12,273 nucleotides of DNA from Promethearchaeati archaeon (GTDB taxonomy: Archaea; Asgardarchaeota; Heimdallarchaeia; Heimdallarchaeales; Heimdallarchaeaceae). Location of the stretch: assembly GCA_013166775.1 (NCBI GenBank), contig JABLTJ010000050.1, positions 1 to 12,273 of the forward strand. Reading direction: 5' to 3'. Under the pieces are notes generated by a model that did not search any database, was not told where the DNA came from, and saw only the letters and a program-made list of their open reading frames with translations. A program made the translations under genes and the position numbers. Shown here in pieces: positions 1,041-12,273 of the stretch (positions are counted from its first letter, which is position 1; each line of letters starts with the position of its first letter).

Positions 1041-1226
1041 GTTCTTTCACTTAGACTCAACTAGAGTCATTTTTGGCTACATAAACCTTTCAATCGGTAG
1101 GCTTGCTGGATACTGCATTGCATTCACGCTAAAGGCAAACTAAAACTATAGAACCTGCCTGGATGCTTCCTTATACGCCCTTCAAAATCCTAATTAGGGT
1201 TCAAACAGTGCCCTGACTAGGGTTAA

Positions 1227-1250
1227 TGGTGCTCCGACCGGGATCGGAAC
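1227..1250 (-). repeat. Degenerate copy of the tRNA-Glu 3' end (att-like relic, proximal)
   Basis: TGGTGCTCCGACCGGGATCGGAAC. Positions 1230-1250 match tRNA 2765-2785 at 18/21. It ends in CCA on the minus strand. Confidence 0.8.
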
Positions 1251-1325
1251 ACAATTTTGCCAGCAAAAACACGTTTGAAACGCTTAGCGGGATCAAATCA
1301 ACTTTAGCGTTCGCTATGCAGAAGA

Positions 1326-1341
1326 GAAAAGCTTTTAAAAA
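1326..1341 (+). promoter_or_regulatory. Putative archaeal BRE/TATA promoter of the CofE-like gene
   Basis: GAAAAG-CTTTTAAAA lies about 25-30 nt upstream of ATG 1366, which fits a leaderless or short-leader transcript. Confidence 0.5.
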
Positions 1342-1365
1342 ATCAGCACAGTCATACCCTAATTT

Positions 1366-2544
1366 ATGATAGGGATGCCTGATTATATTGGCACATTTGC
1401 TTTCGGAGTTAAGATAGGTGTTATTCTACCCGGAGATGATCTTGTAGAGGACGTTTACAAAGCTGTGAAAAAATGCGCTGAAGATGGTCTAATAGAAAAT
1501 GGGGATATTTTGTGCGTTACCGAGTCTATTGTTGCTCGAGCGCAAAATAATTATGTTACGAAGAAGGAAGTTGCCGAAGAAGTAAAGGAAAGATTAAACT
1601 TAACCGAAAAAGACAACCTAGGCATACTCTATCCTATAGCTAGCCGAAACAGATTCGCTCCAATTCTTGAGAGTTTAGCTAAAGCAGTTCATACTGGAAA
1701 CATTACTATTCAATTTTCTTTTCCAAGAGACTGTGTAGGTAATCAATTAGTGCCGGAAGGTCTTGATGTACAATTGAACAAAGATTTATATTCAGAGGAA
1801 ATAAGTTATGATGAATTAAGAAAAGTGAGATTCCATCACCCAGCCACCGGTATTGATTATGTCAAACTTTACAGTGAAATTGTAGCAAGAGAAGGCGCTA
1901 GACCTAATATTTTTGTGTCTAATAATCCAAAAAGGATAACTAAATATGAACCTGATGGCATAATCGTCTCATGCATTCATGAAAGGGAGAAGATACTCCG
2001 AGAAGTAAAAAAAGTGTTTGATAACGCAGTAACATTAAGAGATCTGTGTAATGACCCCAAGAAAACTGCTTGGTCTGAATGGGGATTATTGGGCTGTAAC
2101 CTGAATTCAGATGATCAAATAAAATTGGCTCCTAGAGAATCTTTCGAAGTTGCAAAAAACATTCAATCTAAAGTATGGAATGGAATAAGGAAAAGAGTAG
2201 AAGTAGTGATATATGGTGATGGAGCCTATAAAGATCCTAGTACAGGTATTTATGAATTAGCTGATCCTGTTTGTTCATTTGGTCACACTAAAGGTATTAA
2301 TACAAAGAGAGAAGGCATTAAATACAAATATTTTGTAGGTATGATGAGTTCGCAAGGTAAAAGCAGAGAAGAAATAGAAAAGCGTATTGAAATTGAAAAA
2401 AATAAGGCGTTCAATATAGATGACGATTCTATGGAAGGCACTACTCCAAGAAAGCTAGAGGATATAGCTACTAGTCTAGCAGATTTAGTTAGTGGCTCTG
2501 CAGATGCAGGAACCCCATTGGTTATCATAAAAAATTTGATGTAA
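1366..2544 (+). CDS. Coenzyme F420-0:L-glutamate ligase (CofE)-like protein, long ~390-aa type; substrate uncertain
   Basis: Motifs 'ILPGDDL', 'DILCVTESIVARAQNNY', 'SRNRF', 'HPATGIDY', 'YGDGAYKDP..IYELADP' and 'GTTPR...SLADLVSGSADAGTPLVII'. Alternative start at ATG 1375. Confidence 0.85.
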   Translation: MIGMPDYIGTFAFGVKIGVILPGDDLVEDVYKAVKKCAEDGLIENGDILCVTESIVARAQNNYVTKKEVAEEVKERLNLTEKDNLGILYPIASRNRFAPILESLAKAVHTGNITIQFSFPRDCVGNQLVPEGLDVQLNKDLYSEEISYDELRKVRFHHPATGIDYVKLYSEIVAREGARPNIFVSNNPKRITKYEPDGIIVSCIHEREKILREVKKVFDNAVTLRDLCNDPKKTAWSEWGLLGCNLNSDDQIKLAPRESFEVAKNIQSKVWNGIRKRVEVVIYGDGAYKDPSTGIYELADPVCSFGHTKGINTKREGIKYKYFVGMMSSQGKSREEIEKRIEIEKNKAFNIDDDSMEGTTPRKLEDIATSLADLVSGSADAGTPLVIIKNLM

Positions 2545-2764
2545 TATGCTTTTCTGATATTGTGCGTACTGCTTGACTATTATGTAAATAAATAGAAATT
2601 CACTGTTTTGTAGATTATATGCAGTGAAATTAGACAGAGCAATTGAAATTAGAGATAATGGATTCTTACTAGTAAATTTGTGCTCCAATTCCAGTCTTAT
2701 CTAGGAACTACTCAATTTTGGCCTTTTTAGTTAAAATAGACCCAAAATAATCCCGAAACTGGAA

Positions 2765-2858
2765 TGCTCCGGCCGGGATTTGAACCCGGGTCGGCGGCTT
2801 TCTTCCACTGTTTTGTGTCGAGAGGCCGCTATACTTGACCGGACTATACTACCGGAGC
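2765..2858 (-). tRNA. tRNA-Glu (anticodon CTC) with a 19-nt intron at the canonical 37/38 position (intron 2800-2818); CCA not encoded
   Basis: The reverse complement folds into acceptor stem GCTCCGG/CCGGAGC, anticodon stem GCGGC/GCCGC, loop CT-CTC-G^A and T arm CCGGG-TTCAAAT-CCCGG, with discriminator A. The intron ACACAAAACAGTGGAAGAA forms a BHB-like motif. Confidence 0.95.
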
Positions 2859-2904
2859 CACAGGGTAGAAATTGATGTTTTGTGGTCTTGTTTTCATTAA
2901 CTAG

Positions 2905-3208: not shown

Positions 3209-3439
3209 TCAGGAGAGTGCTTTCAGGTTCGCTTTGTCGTATATCTCTTTCAGTTTCATTGGGTTGTAGTTTACATAGTGTCTCCGTAACACTGTTCTTG
3301 GGATACGACCACAGAAAGCGTTAATGTATGCTGCTGAGACTCCTAGCCTGATCATTTCGTTGTTAAACCAATCCCTAAGATCCTTAGGTGTTATTTTTAT
3401 TCCTGTTTTAGCCACAGCGTTTCTAATAGGTTGTAGAGT
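3209..3439 (-). pseudogene. C-terminal fragment of an archaeal tyrosine recombinase/integrase
   Basis: 'ITPKDLRDWF' (H/KxxR box), 'AFCGRIP' and 'VLRRHY' (catalytic Tyr). An in-frame TAA at 3440-3442 means the N-terminal domain and first catalytic Arg are absent. It lies 350 nt from the tRNA. Confidence 0.85.
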
Positions 3440-3577: not shown

Positions 3578-4861
3578 GTGATTAGCATCTCTTTAACGAC
3601 CCTTTTTGTGGCCTTAAAAAAGTCAGAAGATTGGTGGACAGTTTGGTTAGGATTGATCCTTTTCGGGGTTAGTCTATTAGGAATAATTACTACTGTGCCT
3701 AAGCCAAACCGCTGGGTTACAAATCCTTTTAACTCATTTTCTGCAGATGGGTTTATTTCTTATCTTTTGTTGACCATCATTCTACTTATTCTTCTTTCAA
3801 TATCTATCAAATCGATTCAAAATAGATTGTCAACTTTTATTCCGGCCTTTCTCCTATTTTCGATGTTAGGATTAGTTGCCCAAGTAATATCTAAACAATC
3901 TTTTGTGGGAACTTATGGTTTGGAATATGTTCTTTGGGCATTAATTATTGGATTAATAATTAGCAACACAATCGGTGTACCCGATTTTTTAATACCTGCA
4001 ATAAGAACAGAGTTATACATAAAAATAGGATTAGTGTTGTTAGGCGCTGAGATTTTATTTTCCAGAATATTAAATTTGGGAATACAAGGCCTGTTGCTTG
4101 CTTGGGGAGTAACACCTCTTGTCCTATTCCTTATGTACAAATATGGTACATCCGTCCTAAAATTGGATAAGACCCTAACAGTCCTAATGTCAGCTGCAAC
4201 CTCTGTTTGTGGAGTTTCCGCTGCTATAGCTATTGCAGCAGCAACCAAAGCTAAAAAGGAGTTTCTAACCTTAACAATTTCAATTTCTTTATTATCCACA
4301 GTAATATTACTGGTTTGTCTACCTGCTCTTGTTAGACTTGCGGGAATCGATTATATAATTGGTGGAGCTTGGATCGGGGGAACTGTTGATTCAACCGGTG
4401 CTGTTGTAGCTGCAGGAGAATTGCTGGGAGAAGAAGCAATGGAAGTAGCTACAGTAATTAAACTCATTCAAAATGTTATGATTGCTCTAATAGCATTTGT
4501 TATTGCATTTCTTTGGGTCACAAAGATTGATAGAACCTCAAATGACAAACCAGGTCTAATTCAGATCTGGTATAGATTTCCAAAATTTATAATAGGATTC
4601 GCCTTTCTTTCAATACTCTCTTCATTTGTAGTCCTACCCATAATGGGCGAAATGATGTTGACTGACATTCTTAAATTAACAGGAAGCATTCGAACTTTTC
4701 TTTTTGCAATCGCCTTTTTGAGCATAGGCCTAGAAACAGACTTCAAAACCCTTAAAACACAGATTTCCGGGGGGAAACCAGTCCAATTATATATTGTAGG
4801 TCAATCGCTAAATCTAATTCTCACATTAATCTTTGCATGGATGTTATTTGGTTCTTGGTAA
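3578..4861 (+). CDS. YeiH/UPF0324 family putative sulfate exporter, multi-pass membrane protein
   Basis: 'EDWWTVWLG', 'YIKIGLVLLGAEI', 'SVCGVSAAIA', 'GAWIGGTVDSTGAVVAAG', 'IWYRFPKFIIGF' and 'AFLSIGLET', with more than 10 hydrophobic segments. The GTG start is approximate. Confidence 0.9.
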   Translation: MISISLTTLFVALKKSEDWWTVWLGLILFGVSLLGIITTVPKPNRWVTNPFNSFSADGFISYLLLTIILLILLSISIKSIQNRLSTFIPAFLLFSMLGLVAQVISKQSFVGTYGLEYVLWALIIGLIISNTIGVPDFLIPAIRTELYIKIGLVLLGAEILFSRILNLGIQGLLLAWGVTPLVLFLMYKYGTSVLKLDKTLTVLMSAATSVCGVSAAIAIAAATKAKKEFLTLTISISLLSTVILLVCLPALVRLAGIDYIIGGAWIGGTVDSTGAVVAAGELLGEEAMEVATVIKLIQNVMIALIAFVIAFLWVTKIDRTSNDKPGLIQIWYRFPKFIIGFAFLSILSSFVVLPIMGEMMLTDILKLTGSIRTFLFAIAFLSIGLETDFKTLKTQISGGKPVQLYIVGQSLNLILTLIFAWMLFGSW

Positions 4862-4982
4862 CTCTAGTGATTGATATTGCAGTAATACCAAATTATCAGC
4901 AAAATTAAGTTCCCAAATGCAAACTTAACACTTTGGATATTCAATGTTGTCCCGTCAAAAACTTAGAAATTTGCCGCTCTCA

Positions 4983-5369
4983 TCATTCTTCTATACAATC
5001 ACATAGAAGATTATAGATTTCTTTGGAGGATTTACTGATTTCATTTGTTCTTTTTTTAATAGTTGCCTTTTTTTTCTTAATTATCCTTAATTTGGATTGT
5101 GAGCGAAAACTTATCCATATTCCAACAATTGTTAGTATACTGAAAAATGCAAAATTTAACAAATCCAAAAGAATTGATTTTTCAACAGTAAAAACTGACA
5201 ATATATATGCAATTATCGTACTCATTGTAGGACCAATAACTGTAAGTGCCAAACCGTTTCTAAATTCAGCCATTGTAGTCCTTTCTTCTGCAAGGTAATT
5301 TCTCTCCAAAGCTAATAAAGTACGGATTTTTGCTAGAACTTCTTGTTCATTAACTTCGTTCATTTTCAT
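4983..5369 (-). CDS. DUF202 (YidH-like) small membrane protein
   Basis: 'RNYLAEERTTMAEFRNGLAL' matches the DUF202 R..LA.ERT..A..R signature. Two TM helices and a basic tail follow. AAGGAG precedes the start (ATG 5369 or 5363). Confidence 0.8.
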   Translation of the reverse strand: MKMNEVNEQEVLAKIRTLLALERNYLAEERTTMAEFRNGLALTVIGPTMSTIIAYILSVFTVEKSILLDLLNFAFFSILTIVGIWISFRSQSKLRIIKKKKATIKKRTNEISKSSKEIYNLLCDCIEE

Positions 5370-5477
5370 CTCCTTCTGATTATTTGAGTTTTGGCTTCTA
5401 ATTCAAAGGGAATCTTAAGTCAAGTAGCAAACTAATAAGAGTGATATTCAGTCTGCTTTAACTTCAGTTTATTGCTT

Positions 5478-6926
5478 CTAAATTGGAACTATTATTCTTT
5501 TTAATTCTGCAGAAACTGACTTATTTTTTTCCAAATATTCCTCAAGAGCAGATATTGCATTTATTTCCAGACTTTCACGATCTTTACCATACTTTTCTGG
5601 AACACCTTGGGTTGTAACAAAACATACGCTATACGTTTTTGACCCATTCACTCTTTTTCCATTTACAAAAAACTCTTGAATCCTCTTTCCCTCAGGATTT
5701 TCCAATTTGAAATAAATGTTTAAACCTAAACATCTTTTCACATACCCCCCCATTTGTTTGTATGGGTCACAAGAAAATGTACGTTCCAGATTCTCTTCCA
5801 TCATATCCCAAAGATCTGCTCCAGTAATTTTACAAATTGAAACTTTAGGATTAGTAGGAATGATGTTCCAAAGATCATTCAACACTATTGGTCCAGCTAC
5901 AACAGGCGCTCCGTAACGCCATCCATTAGAAAACGCTATTGTTTCTCCACTAACTTCAATCAATCCTTGAAGCAAAAAGTTATCCATTGTAGATTCCATT
6001 ACTTGGTTACGATTGAGGGCAGTTTTGGTTTTTCCTATAATAACACTTAGCATATTTCGATGATTATCTAAAGCTTTGTTAACAATAGAATCAACCGTTG
6101 GATCTGGTTTTATTGATTCTTCAACCTTGATTAATTTATGTTGAAATTTATGAATCCGACCATTCTTGACTTCAAGATCTAATCTGCCGACAAAAGAACC
6201 GTGACAACCCGACTGCATCAATATGCTACCATTTACTACTACCGCCTCATAAAGACGGTTATGAGTATGGCCACTTAACAAAACATCTATTCCATCAACT
6301 TCTTTAGCTAACTTAAACTCTTGTGGATACCCCAAATGAGATAAAACAATAATCAGATCTACTTTCTCACTTTCGCGAAGTTGCCTTATATATTTGGGTA
6401 ATTCTTTGTTTCCTAAAGTAAAGTAGATGCCTTTACTGAAATTTTTAGGCATTGTTTTATCCACAATTGTAGCTGCAATCCCAATAATTCCCACTCGGAG
6501 ATCATCAATTTCAATTATATGAAAGGCAGGAAAGACAAGTTTGTTCGATTTTTTGTAATAACAATTAATTGCAAGCATTGGAAAATTGAGCTTATCAACT
6601 ATGCCTCTAAGTTTATCGGGACCATAAGCAAATTCCCAATGCGCGGTCATTGCATCTAAAGCTAGCTCATTCAATATAGGAACTAACGCTTCACCTTTAC
6701 TATTTACTGCAAGAAATGTACCATGAAGTGTATCTCCGTTGTCAAGCACAATCACTTTTCCATTTTTTTCATTTTTTACTTCTCTGAAAATAGTTGCAAT
6801 TCTTGCGTAGCCTCCGGATTTTTTATAGACTGCCCTATCTCCAACCCAGAATAGTTCATTATGCAATTTAAAGTAGCTATGGGTGTCATTGATTTGTAAA
6901 ATTGTTAAATTCATACTCTTGGACAT
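5478..6926 (-). CDS. SoxB-like dimetal hydrolase (5'-nucleotidase/metallophosphoesterase superfamily), no signal peptide
   Basis: Metal motifs NDTH, GDTLHG, LSHLG and GHTHN. It has 'MTAHWEFAYG' (SoxB-type HWE, not nucleotidase GNHE), 'FSNGWRYG' (cf. SoxB SPGFRWG) and 'FSCDPYKQMGG' (cf. SoxB FNPDPYxQQGG). The protein starts directly at the first beta-strand. Confidence 0.85.
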   Translation of the reverse strand: MSKSMNLTILQINDTHSYFKLHNELFWVGDRAVYKKSGGYARIATIFREVKNEKNGKVIVLDNGDTLHGTFLAVNSKGEALVPILNELALDAMTAHWEFAYGPDKLRGIVDKLNFPMLAINCYYKKSNKLVFPAFHIIEIDDLRVGIIGIAATIVDKTMPKNFSKGIYFTLGNKELPKYIRQLRESEKVDLIIVLSHLGYPQEFKLAKEVDGIDVLLSGHTHNRLYEAVVVNGSILMQSGCHGSFVGRLDLEVKNGRIHKFQHKLIKVEESIKPDPTVDSIVNKALDNHRNMLSVIIGKTKTALNRNQVMESTMDNFLLQGLIEVSGETIAFSNGWRYGAPVVAGPIVLNDLWNIIPTNPKVSICKITGADLWDMMEENLERTFSCDPYKQMGGYVKRCLGLNIYFKLENPEGKRIQEFFVNGKRVNGSKTYSVCFVTTQGVPEKYGKDRESLEINAISALEEYLEKNKSVSAELKRIIVPI

Positions 6927-7029
6927 ATAATTATCCCAAATAACCTAAGGAACATAAATAGGTAAAAAGCTAATTGTGTTGTAAATCATTTTTCCTTTTT
7001 ATCGCTAAGGGAATTTAATATTTAATTCA

Positions 7030-7371
7030 TCAATTTGATTTTTTAACAATCTTTTTGATCTCTTCAGTTGCAGCTTCCAGTCTTTTAAATCCAACAATTT
7101 CTCCAATTTCTTTACTTTTCTGGAATAATTTAACAGTAGGGGTTTCTTCTACTCCAAGTCCCTCGGCAAGTCTAAGATTTTTAACACTTTCAAACATGTT
7201 AATTCTAGTAAATTTTAATCTACCACCAAAAATCTCAGAAAGCGTTTCATAAATAGGTTTGAATTTTTTACAGTTACCACAAGATTTTATCCAGAATTCG
7301 ACTACTACTGGGTTATTGGATTTAATTTCATCATCAAAATCTTCAGCCTGAATATCTACAATATTCTTCAT
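7030..7371 (-). CDS. Thioredoxin family protein (113 aa, CGNC)
   Basis: The true start is ATG 7371 (MKNIVDI...). It has 'PVVVEFWIKSCGNCKKFKP' and the cis-Pro motif 'ETPTV'. The longer ORF-track N-terminus overlaps the upstream gene in another frame. Confidence 0.9.
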   Translation of the reverse strand: MKNIVDIQAEDFDDEIKSNNPVVVEFWIKSCGNCKKFKPIYETLSEIFGGRLKFTRINMFESVKNLRLAEGLGVEETPTVKLFQKSKEIGEIVGFKRLEAATEEIKKIVKKSN

Positions 7372-7424
7372 TTCAATGAACCCAAAAGACACAGATACTG
7401 ACTTTTCCCTTCTGGTTTTTAATT

Positions 7425-7829
7425 TTATGTAAAATATCTTCCCATTACGTAAGCCCCAAGAAACATGCCAGCAATACCGATTAAAGCTGGAAGATTCCCA
7501 ATTCCAAGACTTGCCATAGCTGATCCAGGACATAACCCTGAGATTCCCCAACCTACGCCAAAAATTATTGCACCAATAATTGTCCTTTTGGTTAATGTTC
7601 GGGTTCTTTTCTTGAATACGCCACCCAATATTGGTTTTTTCAAGACTTTGGGTACAATATTGATTGTTAGTGCTGTTACTAGAGCTGATCCGCCAAGTAG
7701 TAACAGTAATCCCAGATCTTTTAATTGTAAGAAGCTTAGAACAATTTCTTGTTTTGACATTCCACCGAAGGCTAAGCCAAAACCAAAGAATATTCCCCCT
7801 ATAAACACAAAAACATGTTTTGATTTCAA
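7425..7829 (-). CDS. YeeE/YedE (thiosulfate/sulfur transporter) family half-size subunit, PmpB/DUF6691-like
   Basis: 'GGIFFGFGLAFGGM...V.SFL...D', 'GAIIFGVGWGISGLCPG' and 'GMFLG'. The probable TTG start at 7829 overlaps the upstream TGA stop (TTGA), which suggests translational coupling. Confidence 0.88.
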   Translation of the reverse strand: MKSKHVFVFIGGIFFGFGLAFGGMSKQEIVLSFLQLKDLGLLLLLGGSALVTALTINIVPKVLKKPILGGVFKKRTRTLTKRTIIGAIIFGVGWGISGLCPGSAMASLGIGNLPALIGIAGMFLGAYVMGRYFT

Positions 7830-8287
7830 GGAAATACCCCCAGACTTTGGATAACAAGTGCAGTCAATATTCCAACGGTTATGAAAGTGAGTACAGCAAA
7901 AAGTGAAGTTGTAGATAGTGACGCTAAACCGCTTATACCATGTCCAGAAGTGCACCCTTTAGAAAGTCTTGTTCCAAATCCTACAAGAAAACCCCCAATT
8001 GCAAGTCTCCACCATTCTACTGATGTTGTGAAGAAACCTTCTGCCGCTAATGTTATTGTGTAAATGAATGCACCTAAAATAACTCCTACAGCAAAGGTGA
8101 TACGCCATCCTCTAGAATCGAGATACTGTTTTTGAAGAAAGTATGGTCTTTTAGAAAAAAAGGATATTGTAGTACCAAAGAAACTGCTTTGTGTTGCATG
8201 GAGTCCTGTTACAATGTAAATAAAACTTACACCCACGCCTATTAATATTCCACCAATAATATATGGAAAAAAACCTAAGGGAAACAT
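7826..8287 (-). CDS. YeeE/YedE family half-size subunit, PmpA-like
   Basis: 'IGGILIGVG', 'WRITF..G.ILG' and 'GGFLVGFGTRLSKGCTSGHGISG'. Probable start ATG 8287 (MFPLG); alternative TTG 8314. Confidence 0.9.
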   Translation of the reverse strand: MFPLGFFPYIIGGILIGVGVSFIYIVTGLHATQSSFFGTTISFFSKRPYFLQKQYLDSRGWRITFAVGVILGAFIYTITLAAEGFFTTSVEWWRLAIGGFLVGFGTRLSKGCTSGHGISGLASLSTTSLFAVLTFITVGILTALVIQSLGVFP

Positions 8288-8374
8288 AAAATAATGTATC
8301 AATCGACTTTTCAAATAAGCTTTTGCATAACCAAAAATCTACAAAAACCAAAATCTAATAACAAATTCCATATT

Positions 8375-8391
8375 ATAATCATGATGATTAT
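8375..8391. promoter_or_regulatory. Perfect 8-1-8 inverted repeat in the divergent promoter region; candidate operator
   Basis: ATAATCAT-G-ATGATTAT sits about midway between the yeeE-like start (8287) and the MBL-rhodanese start (8460). Confidence 0.5.
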
Positions 8392-8416
8392 TTTCGATTT
8401 CCGCAGTCAATGTGAT

Positions 8417-8432
8417 AATTAATATATTAATT
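8417..8432. promoter_or_regulatory. AT-only 16-bp palindrome at the expected TATA position of the MBL-rhodanese gene
   Basis: AATTAATA-TATTAATT ends 27 nt upstream of ATG 8460. Confidence 0.4.
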
Positions 8433-8459
8433 CAATAAATTTACTAATAGGCGTTAGTT

Positions 8460-9830
8460 ATGTTGATTAAAAAAGTTAAATCTGAAGGGCTATCTCACAA
8501 TTCATATTTCGTAGGTTCAGAAAATGAAGCAATAGTAATTGATCCAAGGCGAGATTGCCAAATTTTTATAGATATAGCTCAGCAAGAAGAGATGACGATC
8601 AAAGGGATTTATGAAACACACAGAAATGAAGATTATGTGATTGGTTCTATTGAACTAGCACAACGCACTGGAGCGGGGATCTATCATGGATCAAAACTAG
8701 ACTTCAAATATGGTCAACAATTACAGGATAGACAAGAATTCTTTTTTGGAAAAATCAAATTAATTTCATTAGAGACGCCTGGCCACACAGATGAAAGCAT
8801 GTCTTATGCTTTAGCTGATCTAGACCTAAGCGAAGAACCAATAATGGTATTTACTGGAGATACATTATTTGTTGGAGACGTTGGACGCACAGACTTATAT
8901 GGACCTAATGAAGCTCAACGATTAACTGAAGCCCTTTATGATAGTATTTTTAACAAACTATTACCTCTTGGAGATGACGTGCTTATTTTTCCTGCCCATG
9001 GTGCCGGTTCAGTTTGTGGAGGAGACATAAGTCAACGAGAAGACAGCACCTTAGGAATAGAAAGAACCTTTAATCCACTTCTACAGAAAACACGAAAAGA
9101 GTTCATAAATCATAAAACTACTGAACGCCATACTCGTCCCCCTTACTTTTTAAAAATGGAAAAATATAATTTAGAAGGTCCACCAATATTCAACAAGTTA
9201 CCAACGCCCCCACCTCTTATGCCAAAAACCTTCTTAAAACAAATGAAACTCGGCGCCGTTATAGTGGACACTCGTCAACCCCCATCATTTGGTGGAGCGC
9301 ATTTAAAAAACTCCTATAGTATTTGGTTGGAAAGAATTCCTTCGTATGCAGGTTGGACTCTACCATACGATAAACCAATTCTCTTAATTTTGGAGGACAA
9401 AACTTACCTAAATAAAGCTGTTTGCTACCTTTACCGACTAGGCTATGATAATTTAACAGGATATCTTGTGGGAGGGATAGAAGGCTGGTACAAACAGTCT
9501 TTACCCTTGGAACATTTTGGGTCAATTTCTGTACATGAACTAAAAAATTGGTTAAACCAAAAAGATGACTTGTTCATATTAGATGTTAGAGAAGATGAAA
9601 AGTGGGATCAAGGGCACATCTCAGGATCTATTAATATCTTTTCAGGATACCTTGAAAACCGGATTGAAGAATTACCAAGGGGTCGCCCAATCATAGTGTT
9701 CTGCAATGTGGGAAATCGTGCTAGCTTAGCAGCAAGCATTCTGACTCGAGCAGGATTTCAAGACGTCCACAATGTGCTCGGTGGTATGATTGCTTGGAAG
9801 AACGCTGGTTATGAAATTACCACCTTATGA
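8460..9830 (+). CDS. MBL-fold persulfide-dioxygenase-like domain fused to pseudo-rhodanese and rhodanese domains (CstB-like architecture)
   Basis: 'IDPRRD', 'ETHRNED' (H54), 'TPGHT' (H109), 'FTGDTLFVGDVGRTDL' (D134) and 'PAHGAGSVCG' (C186). The middle rhodanese-like domain lacks the active-site Cys. The C-terminal rhodanese has 'LDVRE..W..GHI.GS', 'FCNVGNRA' (C415) and 'GGMIAW'. Confidence 0.92.
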   Translation: MLIKKVKSEGLSHNSYFVGSENEAIVIDPRRDCQIFIDIAQQEEMTIKGIYETHRNEDYVIGSIELAQRTGAGIYHGSKLDFKYGQQLQDRQEFFFGKIKLISLETPGHTDESMSYALADLDLSEEPIMVFTGDTLFVGDVGRTDLYGPNEAQRLTEALYDSIFNKLLPLGDDVLIFPAHGAGSVCGGDISQREDSTLGIERTFNPLLQKTRKEFINHKTTERHTRPPYFLKMEKYNLEGPPIFNKLPTPPPLMPKTFLKQMKLGAVIVDTRQPPSFGGAHLKNSYSIWLERIPSYAGWTLPYDKPILLILEDKTYLNKAVCYLYRLGYDNLTGYLVGGIEGWYKQSLPLEHFGSISVHELKNWLNQKDDLFILDVREDEKWDQGHISGSINIFSGYLENRIEELPRGRPIIVFCNVGNRASLAASILTRAGFQDVHNVLGGMIAWKNAGYEITTL

Positions 9831-9856: not shown

Positions 9857-10843
9857 TTATTTCCAGTAATCTTTTCCATCACAGTAGCTTATCATTAAAT
9901 CAATATCAACAAGTTCTTTTGGATAGGGCTCAAAAAAGGATTGACTTAACAAATAATCGTCTTTGAACCTTAAAAGCCATGAAGTGGAAATTCCCGTAAG
10001 TACACTTAAAGGAATAACCCCTGATTTATAATCATCCAATGATTTCAAGAAAAATTCTTTCTCTTCACCAGAAAGGCTCTTCGAAAAATAGCCCATACTG
10101 TTCATTAAAACATTAATTTGAGAACCACATCTAGGAGCACGTTTCAAAGCCTGTAAAAGATGTTTTTCATAATCCGTAATCAATTTAACTATATTGTATT
10201 GATCTCTTTTAGCAACTATTCTTCCGAGAATCCTCATTTCTTTTTCGTTATACGCCTTAAGCAATAACTTATTTTCTGAGTGAAAGTTTAGAACATCTTT
10301 ACTTGATTTTGATCTTTTGACGTCTCTAAACTTAGCTAACGTGTAAAGTTTTGTAAGGAAATTGCTCTTTATGTTTGGATTTCTAAGTCTGCCTTCATCT
10401 TCTATTGCTAAATGAGAAAATCTTTCCAAAACAGCCATTCCGAAAAATCCTGGACCTTTACCCCTTAATGCATCACCTGGATTTGGACCAGAATATCTTT
10501 TCGCATCCTTTATGGCACTCGTTGGTGATCGCCCTTTTAATATGAAGCCATCCACTTCAGGTAAAGAATCTAAAAAGGAATTTACAAAGGCATCCATCTT
10601 TTCAGTGAAATCTAACCCCGTTTTCGGTTGAATAAGCTTCATTTTATCTTCTTTCATAACAATGCGTAATGCATCTCTAGGTGTTCCTAAACCTATCTCA
10701 ACTTCAGGACAAACAGATATTAAATTGACATGTGGAATGAGCTGTTTAACAACATCACTGGCAATCTTCAACCCATTGTATCGGCATGGTTCAATCTCAA
10801 TACATCTACTAACAACAACTGTTGGAGTAACAAAATCTCTCAT
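9857..10843 (-). CDS. DUF523 (TudS thiouracil-desulfidase-like) plus DUF1722 (YbgA) fusion protein
   Basis: N-domain 'VVSRC....CRYNG', 'VCPEVEIGLGTPR', 'GFILKGRSPT', 'G.GFF' and 'EDEGRL'. C-domain 'FHSENKLLL.AY', 'NVL....GYF' and 'YL..Q.FFEPYP'. Confidence 0.92.
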   Translation of the reverse strand: MRDFVTPTVVVSRCIEIEPCRYNGLKIASDVVKQLIPHVNLISVCPEVEIGLGTPRDALRIVMKEDKMKLIQPKTGLDFTEKMDAFVNSFLDSLPEVDGFILKGRSPTSAIKDAKRYSGPNPGDALRGKGPGFFGMAVLERFSHLAIEDEGRLRNPNIKSNFLTKLYTLAKFRDVKRSKSSKDVLNFHSENKLLLKAYNEKEMRILGRIVAKRDQYNIVKLITDYEKHLLQALKRAPRCGSQINVLMNSMGYFSKSLSGEEKEFFLKSLDDYKSGVIPLSVLTGISTSWLLRFKDDYLLSQSFFEPYPKELVDIDLMISYCDGKDYWK

Positions 10844-11487: not shown

Positions 11488-12273
11488 TTAGAATGGTGCG
11501 AAGATTCCTATGAATACTAGCCACGCTAAGATTGATTTTGCTACAAAGCTTAGAATGATATAGAATCTTTCTCCGTATAGATAGTCTTTCCAACGACTAA
11601 CACCTTTGTATTGTAATACCATGTTAAGGGCAAAGATGTTGAAGACAATGAAGTATATGAAAAGAATCATGTAAACAAAGGTAGGTATTTCTGCGTTTAT
11701 TGAAGAAAGTGCTCCAATGAAGTATGCGTAGAGGACGATCCATGGGAGTCCACCGGAAATACATCCGAGTATGAAAGAAGTCCAGTTTGTTTTTTCGGTT
11801 TTTTGGTTTATCAGTTCCATTAAGTATCCGAACATTATCATCATTGCGTTTAATACGAAGATCATTGTCAAAGACCAGAAATCCCATACGCCCAAAAAAA
11901 GGGCAATTAGCACTATCATTATTGAGCTAGAGAATGCATATTCATACCATCGGTATGGATTCATTCCTTTCTTCAGGTTCTCATTGTATTTATCATTCTT
12001 AATGAATGCAATGATAAAATGAGCTAATGCTGAAAGTAATGGAAAAGATGCTACAATAACTCCAAGATACCCGATTGTAACCAAGACTTGTGGGTCAGGA
12101 GTGACATCTATTCGAAATGGTGGACCTTCAATTATTGTAAATTTTGTGTAGAAAGTATAAAGACTACGTTCCCACTCGAGCTGAGTTCCTAGGACAAGCA
12201 TTAATATTCCTTGGATTAGATGTAGCACAAAAGCAGCTGCATTGAAGCGTTTCAGATATTTGAAGGAAATCGG
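11488..12273 (-). CDS. heR: Heliorhodopsin; 5'-truncated by the window edge
   Basis: The frame is open to the window end (PISFKYLKRFNAAAFVLHLIQG...). It has TM1 His 'LHLIQ', TM2 'SALAHF', TM3 'NPYRWYEYAFSSSIM' (counterion Glu), 'FGYLME', and TM7 'GERFYIILSFVAKSILAW' with the retinal-binding Lys. Confidence 0.95.
   Translation of the reverse strand, partial: PISFKYLKRFNAAAFVLHLIQGILMLVLGTQLEWERSLYTFYTKFTIIEGPPFRIDVTPDPQVLVTIGYLGVIVASFPLLSALAHFIIAFIKNDKYNENLKKGMNPYRWYEYAFSSSIMIVLIALFLGVWDFWSLTMIFVLNAMMIMFGYLMELINQKTEKTNWTSFILGCISGGLPWIVLYAYFIGALSSINAEIPTFVYMILFIYFIVFNIFALNMVLQYKGVSRWKDYLYGERFYIILSFVAKSILAWLVFIGIFAPF

Follow-up and report, generated by a model that had tools for sequence, protein, structure and literature searches.

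In E. flavus 21-3, thiosulfate is oxidised by TsdA together with a SoxYZ-independent SoxB-like enzyme (TsdA-SoxB-SdoA/B; Zhang et al., 2020, PMC7608252), and the thiosulfate-induced cluster of this organism contains three genes annotated as '5'-nucleotidase', with a deletion phenotype for 01365 only (PMC7608252). Split YeeE/YedE pairs (YedE1E2) import zero-valent sulfur or polysulfide, and YedE1E2 and persulfide dioxygenase (PDO) are found together in 83.5% of genomes (PMC10812762), while it is full-length TsuA, together with TsuB, that imports thiosulfate (PMC11582611). CstB of S. aureus S-sulfonates its own loop cysteine in an O2-dependent step with release of thiosulfate (PMC12934615), and YeiH, which thiosulfate induces more strongly than any other gene in H. 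denitrificans, has been suggested to export sulfite (Li et al., 2024, PMC11582611). The window described here is a stretch of 12,273 nucleotides (contig JABLTJ010000050.1 of assembly GCA_013166775.1), which is the entire contig C96 of the bin genome G000, and it carries a seven-gene locus built around a signal-less SoxB-like dimetal hydrolase. Profile scores, fold, tree and active-site motifs all indicate that this enzyme is a relative of SoxB and not a nucleotidase. SoxYZ independence, which a preliminary description of this DNA had proposed, has a precedent in the SoxB-like enzymes of E. flavus 21-3 (PMC7608252); what appears to be new is a cytoplasmic SoxB-like clade in anaerobic archaea, of which no description was found in the literature searched (most subscription journals lay outside it).

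A SoxB-like hydrolase and its partner genes

The hydrolase scores 342 bits with the SoxB model TIGR04486 versus at most 129 bits with any nucleotidase model, although it misses the 550-bit cut-off for canonical SoxB. Its best PDB sequence match is SoxB of T. thermophilus (E-value 7e-43 vs 1e-31) and the same protein accounts for the top seven Foldseek matches (TM 0.90-0.91) of its AlphaFold model (pLDDT 86.6). The metal ligands D14, H16, D65, H96, H197, H220, and H222 are invariant. Where nucleotidases have Asn-His-Glu (GNHE), 237 of 240 homologues have His-Trp-Glu/Asp, the catalytic His being replaced in the family by Trp (W97 in the window protein). R337-Y338 correspond to the Arg-Trp of SoxB, and Y395 occupies the position of the SoxB loop Asp. 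The insertion of about 30 residues which SoxB has after H16 is missing, as is its acidic aromatic loop (124-130), which we take to be the site of SoxYZ docking. These traits extend across the 240 homologues. The functional roles of SoxB active-site residues were reportedly addressed by Sauve in 2009. Three cysteines of the hydrolase (C122, C241, and C399) show 90-100% conservation among the aligned archaeal/anaerobe sequences. An internal sulfur-accepting Cys is possible, as C399 is located next to Y395 in its loop, but sphingomonad orthologues have Phe or Met at this position.

No Tat motif was detected in any of the 240 homologues, and 231 of 237 have their first metal ligand among the initial 25 residues (residue 14 in the window protein), which supports the predicted cytoplasmic location of the enzyme. 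In a quick IQ-TREE search (SH-aLRT only, 48 rows, with 12 rows, mostly near-duplicates, left out), the family is monophyletic (96) and separate from the canonical SoxB clade (100); together with canonical SoxB and with exported and other SoxB-like types it forms a clade that excludes the nucleotidases (99). Identity within the family exceeds 50% across phyla. The clade and a true SoxB occur side by side in Thermithiobacillus, a Nitrospirota metagenome-assembled genome (MAG) and a Bradyrhizobium plasmid, so the former is not simply a substitute for SoxB. The eight SoxB-family matches of Thermithiobacillus tepidarius (G298, L221-L227) comprise one canonical protein, one of the hydrolase clade and several other SoxB-like types.

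RefSeq and IMG frequently label homologues as nucleotidases, so that the gene is indeed hidden in the way the preliminary description had expected, and KEGG and IMG label many of them 'sulfur-oxidizing protein SoxB'. The family is thus easily confused with a nucleotidase or with the true soxB marker, and because of the latter labels, soxB-based claims of thiosulfate oxidation in archaea or anaerobic bacteria may be false positives.

Scans of the window for open reading frames (ORFs) and protein families showed that all seven genes are intact and uninterrupted. They have the arrangement first described for them, a minus-strand run of yeeE half A, yeeE half B, thioredoxin, SoxB-like hydrolase, and a DUF202-like gene, with the MBL-rhodanese gene divergent from this run and the YeiH gene convergent to it:

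3578-4861, plus strand: YeiH/PSE-family putative sulfate or sulfite exporter, about 12 hydrophobic segments (PF03601, 170 bits; TIGR00698 below cut-off)
4983-5363, minus strand: DUF202-like small membrane protein, 126 aa, about 2 hydrophobic segments (PF02656, E-value 0.005, below cut-off)
5478-6926, minus strand: signal-less SoxB-like dimetal hydrolase, 482 aa (TIGR04486, motifs, fold, tree)
7030-7371, minus strand: thioredoxin of a module-specific subfamily, 113 aa, C31-x-x-C34 (CGNC; PF00085)
7425-7829, minus strand: split YeeE/YedE half B, DUF6691, 134 aa, single Cys100 (PF20398, 62 bits)
7826-8287, minus strand: split YeeE/YedE half A, 153 aa, single Cys112 in a GC motif (PF04143)
8460-9830, plus strand: CstB-like MBL/persulfide dioxygenase-pseudorhodanese-rhodanese, 456 aa (matches 3TP9 and 3R2U; invariant residues)

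The same scans agree with the earlier statement that soxY/Z/A/X/C/D, tusA, and sqr are missing from the window; also missing are cstA, TsdA or a cytochrome, DsrE, a TusA-like gene, and an adjacent TsuB/YeeD. The TTG start of yeeE half B overlaps the stop of half A, which suggests translational coupling of the two halves. In a marine-sediment RNA run, for which there was no silent control, seven short contigs were found, two of which are 98-99% identical (to the hydrolase and to yeeE half B). A promoter and terminator scan with bacterial models, ill-suited to archaea, gave no more matches than expected by chance.

The MBL-rhodanese has the Fe ligands, the loop Cys-Gly, and the C-terminal rhodanese Cys of CstB, with H54, H109, D134, C186-G187, and C415 invariant in 25 sequences and an E-value of 6e-50 for 3R2U. 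Its first metal motif (residues 52-58) is ETHRNED versus ETHIHAD in CstB. This subfamily comes mainly from anaerobes (Bathyarchaeia, Chloroflexota, WOR-3), and its members may, to judge from their sequences, work without O2. A co-fold of the hydrolase with the MBL-rhodanese scored 0.01 and was counted neither for nor against a pairing. The yeeE pair, encoding two short proteins side by side that each have a single conserved Cys, corresponds to YedE1E2/PmpAB, and the halves (153 and 134 aa) fall well short of the full-length YeeE of about 330 aa that defines TsuA (NF052577, 34 bits against a cut-off of 400). The preliminary description had thiosulfate or a polythionate entering through this pair. 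For thiosulfate this is not supported, as split pairs were shown to import S0/polysulfide (PMC10812762) and thiosulfate import was shown for the full-length TsuA.

Neighbourhood, distribution, and host

The neighbourhood of the hydrolase gene was surveyed at 160 loci, taken as best hits from 80 GTDB genomes and 80 metagenome contigs, with neighbours scored within 5 kb. Hosts include Bathyarchaeia, Methanomicrobia, Methanosarcina, Methanobacteriaceae, Thermoplasmatota, and Hadarchaeota as well as Chloroflexota, Bacteroidota, Nitrospirota, and Bacillota. The neighbours found were DsrE (33 loci), the yeeE pair (30), MBL-rhodanese (28), DUF202 (25), thioredoxin (21), TauE (8), TsdA-like (7), YeiH (6), DASS (6), and SulP (4), and neither soxY nor soxZ was present at any of the 160. 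Counts for 'TusA' were rejected, being rhodanese-domain matches from a fused seed. At least one sulfur-trafficking gene was present at 42 of the 66 GTDB loci with 5 kb or more of flank versus 3.2% of random positions in G000, so the association is not due to chance, although the 66 loci are not independent (Methanomicrobiales contribute 17). The sulfur context is conserved in other genomes, in support of the preliminary description.

The yeeE pair and the MBL-rhodanese are each found under nine phylum or class labels, in varying orders and orientations, and anion exporters of four families recur near the hydrolase under ten lineage labels. YeiH itself is confined to relatives with at least 82% identity and to one Pontibacter plasmid, on which it lies immediately ahead of the orthologue in a group of yeeE, DUF6691, MBL, TauE, and DsrE genes; in other lineages TauE, SulP, or DASS takes its place. 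With only these occurrences, and with sulfite export argued to be likelier (Li et al., 2024), the proposal that YeiH is the sulfate exporter of the module was not supported as it stood. The role of sulfur carrier in place of SoxY, which the preliminary description gave to the rhodanese and thioredoxin cysteines, is likewise hypothetical. The thioredoxin subfamily is essentially of Bathyarchaeia type and remains beside the yeeE pair even where the block is inverted relative to the hydrolase. DsrE abuts the hydrolase gene in Methanomicrobia and Thermoplasmatota, and bacterial orthologues are flanked by a second DUF202 subfamily; several of the bacterial loci also have neighbouring genes for peroxiredoxin, SOD-like, and DJ-1/PfpI proteins. 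Orthologues from aerobic Alphaproteobacteria and Bacteroidota lie within PDO/TauE/TsdA clusters. As read from gene content, the conserved core thus consists of the hydrolase, a Cys-based sulfur handler, and an interchangeable anion transporter, YeiH and the thioredoxin being clade-specific, interchangeable parts. The distribution of the module is patchy.

At Methanoculleus-type loci (L035:10001-11775, L044:10001-11763) the hydrolase gene is followed by a DsrE gene with conserved Cys, stop and start overlapping, in a core housekeeping region; no MBL-rhodanese was found at these loci and cultured strains exist. At Nitrospirota and Desulfobacterota loci (L070, L084, L088) the genes ahead of the orthologue encode a TsdA-like cytochrome and two large membrane proteins, one or both with a cytochrome c domain.

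The counterpart of the hydrolase in E. flavus was sought through related loci. Locus L237 matches the gene count from 01365 to tsdA but with a different paralogue of 523 aa, and by this count we infer that 01365 is the counterpart of that paralogue; the family orthologue at L237 follows a DsbA-like gene. E. flavus 01435 likewise follows a thiol:disulfide gene (01430), and a published primer located just downstream of 01430 encodes IARIKTI, fitting the N-terminal motif of the family. At the DNA level the E. flavus primers gave no match to related loci except for one hit with two mismatches in a DsbA-like gene. On the basis of this synteny and the primer-encoded peptide, D0Y83_01435 is probably the E. 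flavus orthologue of the hydrolase, thiosulfate-induced and dispensable for sulfur globules.

The contig is almost certainly Bathyarchaeia DNA that was mis-binned into the genome of another archaeon, as several sequence comparisons indicate. A 100.8-kb contig (L192) shares 97.6% identity with the window across 7.5 kb, and its flanking proteins are placed by NCBI in Ca. Bathyarchaeota. G000 has nothing close to these flanking genes; for the Vps4-like ATPase, identity is 36% there versus 75% in a Bathyarchaeia. The left 3.4 kb of the window has 74% nucleotide identity to a Bathyarchaeia genome (93% in the tRNA) and neither tested congener of G000 matches it. A 57-kb contig that is 94.8% identical to window positions 1225-2859 has an S6e gene just 47% identical to that of G000, whose EF-2 is 84% identical to that of a congener versus 40% to that of a Bathyarchaeia. 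Orthologues of the hydrolase and MBL-rhodanese were found in none of 24 congeners of G000. The locus is thus archaeal, as first described, but neither it nor other findings in the window should be credited to the nominal organism of the bin. The carrier is a sediment archaeon, and the gene is accessory in Bathyarchaeia (8 of 251 sampled genomes).

No soxYZ or soxAX was found in G000, itself an incomplete genome. Because of the mis-binning, such searches were repeated in Bathyarchaeia carriers, all incomplete MAGs: SoxY was not found in two of them, SoxZ in five and a SoxA/TsdA-type cytochrome in four, which accords with the expected lack of SoxYZ. The TsdA family PF21342 was not found in G000, G041, G042, G128, or G185. 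Three tusA genes of G000 were ruled out as partners as they belong to the main organism of the bin. ARAGORN also reported a tRNA-Pyl (CUA) in G000.

Two further features lie near the left edge of the shared region:

2765-2858, minus strand: intron-containing tRNA, anticodon read as CUC (Glu) (Rfam RF00005, 51.9 bits)
3209-3415, minus strand: archaeal integrase C-terminal remnant (PF16795, E-value 4.5e-8)

Identity with near-identical contigs ends at about 3408 (blastn), within the integrase remnant, which lies 350 bp from the tRNA, and this breakpoint is therefore a probable island edge, with the tRNA as a possible integration site. This tRNA was not reported by ARAGORN in related loci and was detected with Rfam. 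Full-length integrases lie beside the module in L097, L099, L100, and L101.

Just outside the cluster lies a TudS-DUF1722 (2-thiouracil desulfurase) fusion (9857-10843), which is co-oriented with a heliorhodopsin gene (11488-12228) both here and in L098, L099, and L192; one might speculate that these form a light-linked pair for 4-thiouridine handling. Between them is a membrane ORF of 60 aa, inside a stretch of about 400 bp absent from L192. Both genes were ruled out as parts of the module, being present at 3-4 of the 160 loci. The left arm also has the C-terminus of an aldehyde:ferredoxin oxidoreductase (20-433), a downstream truncated isochorismatase-family ORF of 72 aa (822-1040, E-value 0.003) that is probably a pseudogene, and an F420-0:gamma-glutamyl ligase-family protein (1366-2544) of 392 aa compared with 244-253 positions in CofE models.

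Proposed function and competing explanations

The function favoured here, with a probability of about 0.5, is that of a cytoplasmic sink in which polythionates or Cys-S-thiosulfonates would be hydrolysed to sulfate and persulfide for detoxification or turnover. The YedE1E2-type pair would admit sulfane sulfur (S0/polysulfide) and perhaps polythionates. Sulfonate-capped chains (tri-/tetrathionate, R-S-S-SO3-) would then form from polythionates and protein or small-molecule thiols or, under O2 exposure, through oxidation of the Cys186 persulfide by the CstB-like protein. The SoxB-like enzyme would cleave the terminal S-SO3 bond of such chains to give sulfate and persulfide, the latter being accepted or reduced to HS- by Cys186/Cys415 of the CstB-like protein and the dedicated thioredoxin with restoration of thiols, and the oxyanion would be removed by YeiH or, in other lineages, by TauE, SulP, or DASS. 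The module would serve to detoxify reactive sulfur and to repair thiols; sulfide would be a by-product, and no energy would be conserved. There is precedent for this chemistry, as SoxB hydrolyses free trithionate (PMC5336275) and tetrathionate turns the cysteines of DsrE3A/TusA into Cys-S-thiosulfonates (PMC4175335).

A number of observations weigh against such a sink. About one third of the well-flanked loci lack a detected sulfur neighbour. CstB-type oxidation requires O2, yet most hosts are anaerobes. Deletion of 01435, the probable orthologue in E. flavus, gave no sulfur-globule phenotype (PMC7608252). In T. thermophilus SoxB a Cys-S-sulfonate lacking an extra sulfane stays short of the metals (PMC5336275), so that the adduct formed by CstB might not serve as a substrate, and polythionates are not among the demonstrated cargo of split YeeE, which is S0/polysulfide (PMC10812762).

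A tentative and rather unlikely explanation is that the module supplies sulfide from thiosulfate without sulfite, feeding sulfur assimilation; this gives concrete form to the flow of sulfur in the preliminary description. Thiosulfate would open the disulfide of thioredoxin (or DsrE) to yield Cys-S-S-SO3-, from which the hydrolase would free sulfate, after which the second Cys would expel HS- and the disulfide re-form (net S2O3(2-) + H2O -> SO4(2-) + HS- + H+). The dedicated thioredoxin at 21 loci, the adjoining DsrE of Methanomicrobia and Thermoplasmatota, and the recurrence of the four exporter families would all fit this, and the avoidance of sulfite would suit methanogens, since sulfite inhibits methyl-CoM reductase. 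However, the yeeE pair resembles S0 importers and has no TsuB/YeeD adjacent, no cysteine-synthase-type gene occurs among the annotated recurrent neighbour clusters, the hosts presumably live mostly in sulfide-rich settings, and isolated SoxB fails to turn over even its SoxYZ conjugate (PMC5336275). The wider proposal that the clade hydrolyses thiosulfate in the cytoplasm to sulfate and sulfide in a redox-neutral reaction, with the Cys of thioredoxin or DsrE as a recyclable handle, is decidedly doubtful; if true, it would amount to a sulfite-free route to sulfide, a non-respiratory 'disproportionation', in Bathyarchaeia, methanogens, and other anaerobes. It is likewise unlikely that the core is the known YedE1E2 and CstB persulfide detoxification under oxygen exposure, in which the hydrolase converts the thiosulfate or thiosulfonate product to sulfate and imported sulfane sulfur leaves as exported sulfate. 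The invariant CstB catalytic residues, the established YedE1E2-PDO linkage (PMC10812762), and the clusters of aerobic Alphaproteobacteria and Bacteroidota speak for it. Against it stand the many strictly anaerobic carriers, the lack of an MBL-rhodanese at the Methanoculleus loci, and the changed first metal motif of the anaerobe-associated MBL subfamily.

The two remaining explanations concern the identity of the enzyme. A cytoplasmic nucleotidase or phosphoesterase placed among sulfur genes by accident, for example in thionucleotide salvage with TudS-DUF1722, would account for the shared superfamily and Pfam domains, the database names, and the TudS-DUF1722 gene just past the cluster; it is improbable given the His-to-Trp change in the GNHE motif, the well-supported grouping with SoxB, and the occurrence of TudS-DUF1722 at just 3 of 160 loci. 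Very improbable indeed is an ordinary SoxB of the canonical Sox pathway whose soxXAYZ genes were left unassembled. The KEGG/IMG names and the incompleteness of every genome tested would allow it, but the protein lacks the Tat signal, the insertion, the acidic aromatic loop, and the loop Asp, scores under the TIGR04486 cut-off, belongs to a clade that is an extra gene where true SoxB is present, and comes from carriers in which SoxY, SoxZ, and SoxA/TsdA were not found.

The hydrolase defines a large conserved branch of the SoxB family, predicted to be cytoplasmic, in organisms not known as sulfur oxidisers. Since the carriers include cultured methanogens of the Methanoculleus, Methanosarcina, and Methanobacterium lineages, its function is directly testable. 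Should the hydrolase act on polythionates or S-thiosulfonates, sediment anaerobes would contribute to the turnover of sulfur-cycle intermediates by a route that is currently unmodelled.

Comparison with known systems

The hydrolase shares with canonical SoxB (T. thermophilus 2WDC/4UWQ) its fold (TM 0.9), the dimetal ligands including His for Asn, the Trp at the position of the nucleotidase catalytic His, the C-domain Arg, and the DPY-x-Q-x-GG loop. It differs in having no Tat signal, in its length (482 vs about 560 aa), in the Tyr for the loop Asp, in the absence of nearby soxXAYZCD, and in forming a separate clade that occurs in methanogens and other anaerobes. Like the E. flavus pathway with its '5'-nucleotidases', the locus combines a SoxYZ-free SoxB-like enzyme with an MBL-rhodanese, and orthologues of the hydrolase are present in similar clusters (L184, L185, L237, L239); the pathway there is aerobic and driven by TsdA, whereas the Bathyarchaeia locus has neither TsdA nor a cytochrome.

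The MBL-rhodanese resembles S. aureus CstB in its three-domain layout, Fe ligands, loop Cys-Gly, and rhodanese Cys, but has ETHRNED instead of ETHIHAD, comes from an anaerobic host, and is paired with a SoxB-like hydrolase in the absence of sqr and cstA. The yeeE pair, like YedE1E2/PmpAB (PMC10812762, PMC11582611), consists of adjacent PDO-linked membrane proteins of 130-150 aa with one conserved Cys each; unlike these it is archaeal and linked to a thioredoxin and a SoxB-like gene, and its substrate is a prediction. DsrE3A/TusA of Metallosphaera cuprina (PMC4175335) is likewise cytoplasmic and archaeal, with tetrathionate-derived protein Cys-S-thiosulfonates, and DsrE is the commonest neighbour of the hydrolase family elsewhere; that system, however, lies beside an Hdr-like complex and the window has neither DsrE nor TusA. 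The window locus resembles a SoxB-type hydrolase module but falls outside the canonical Sox, TsuAB, and TsdA pathways.

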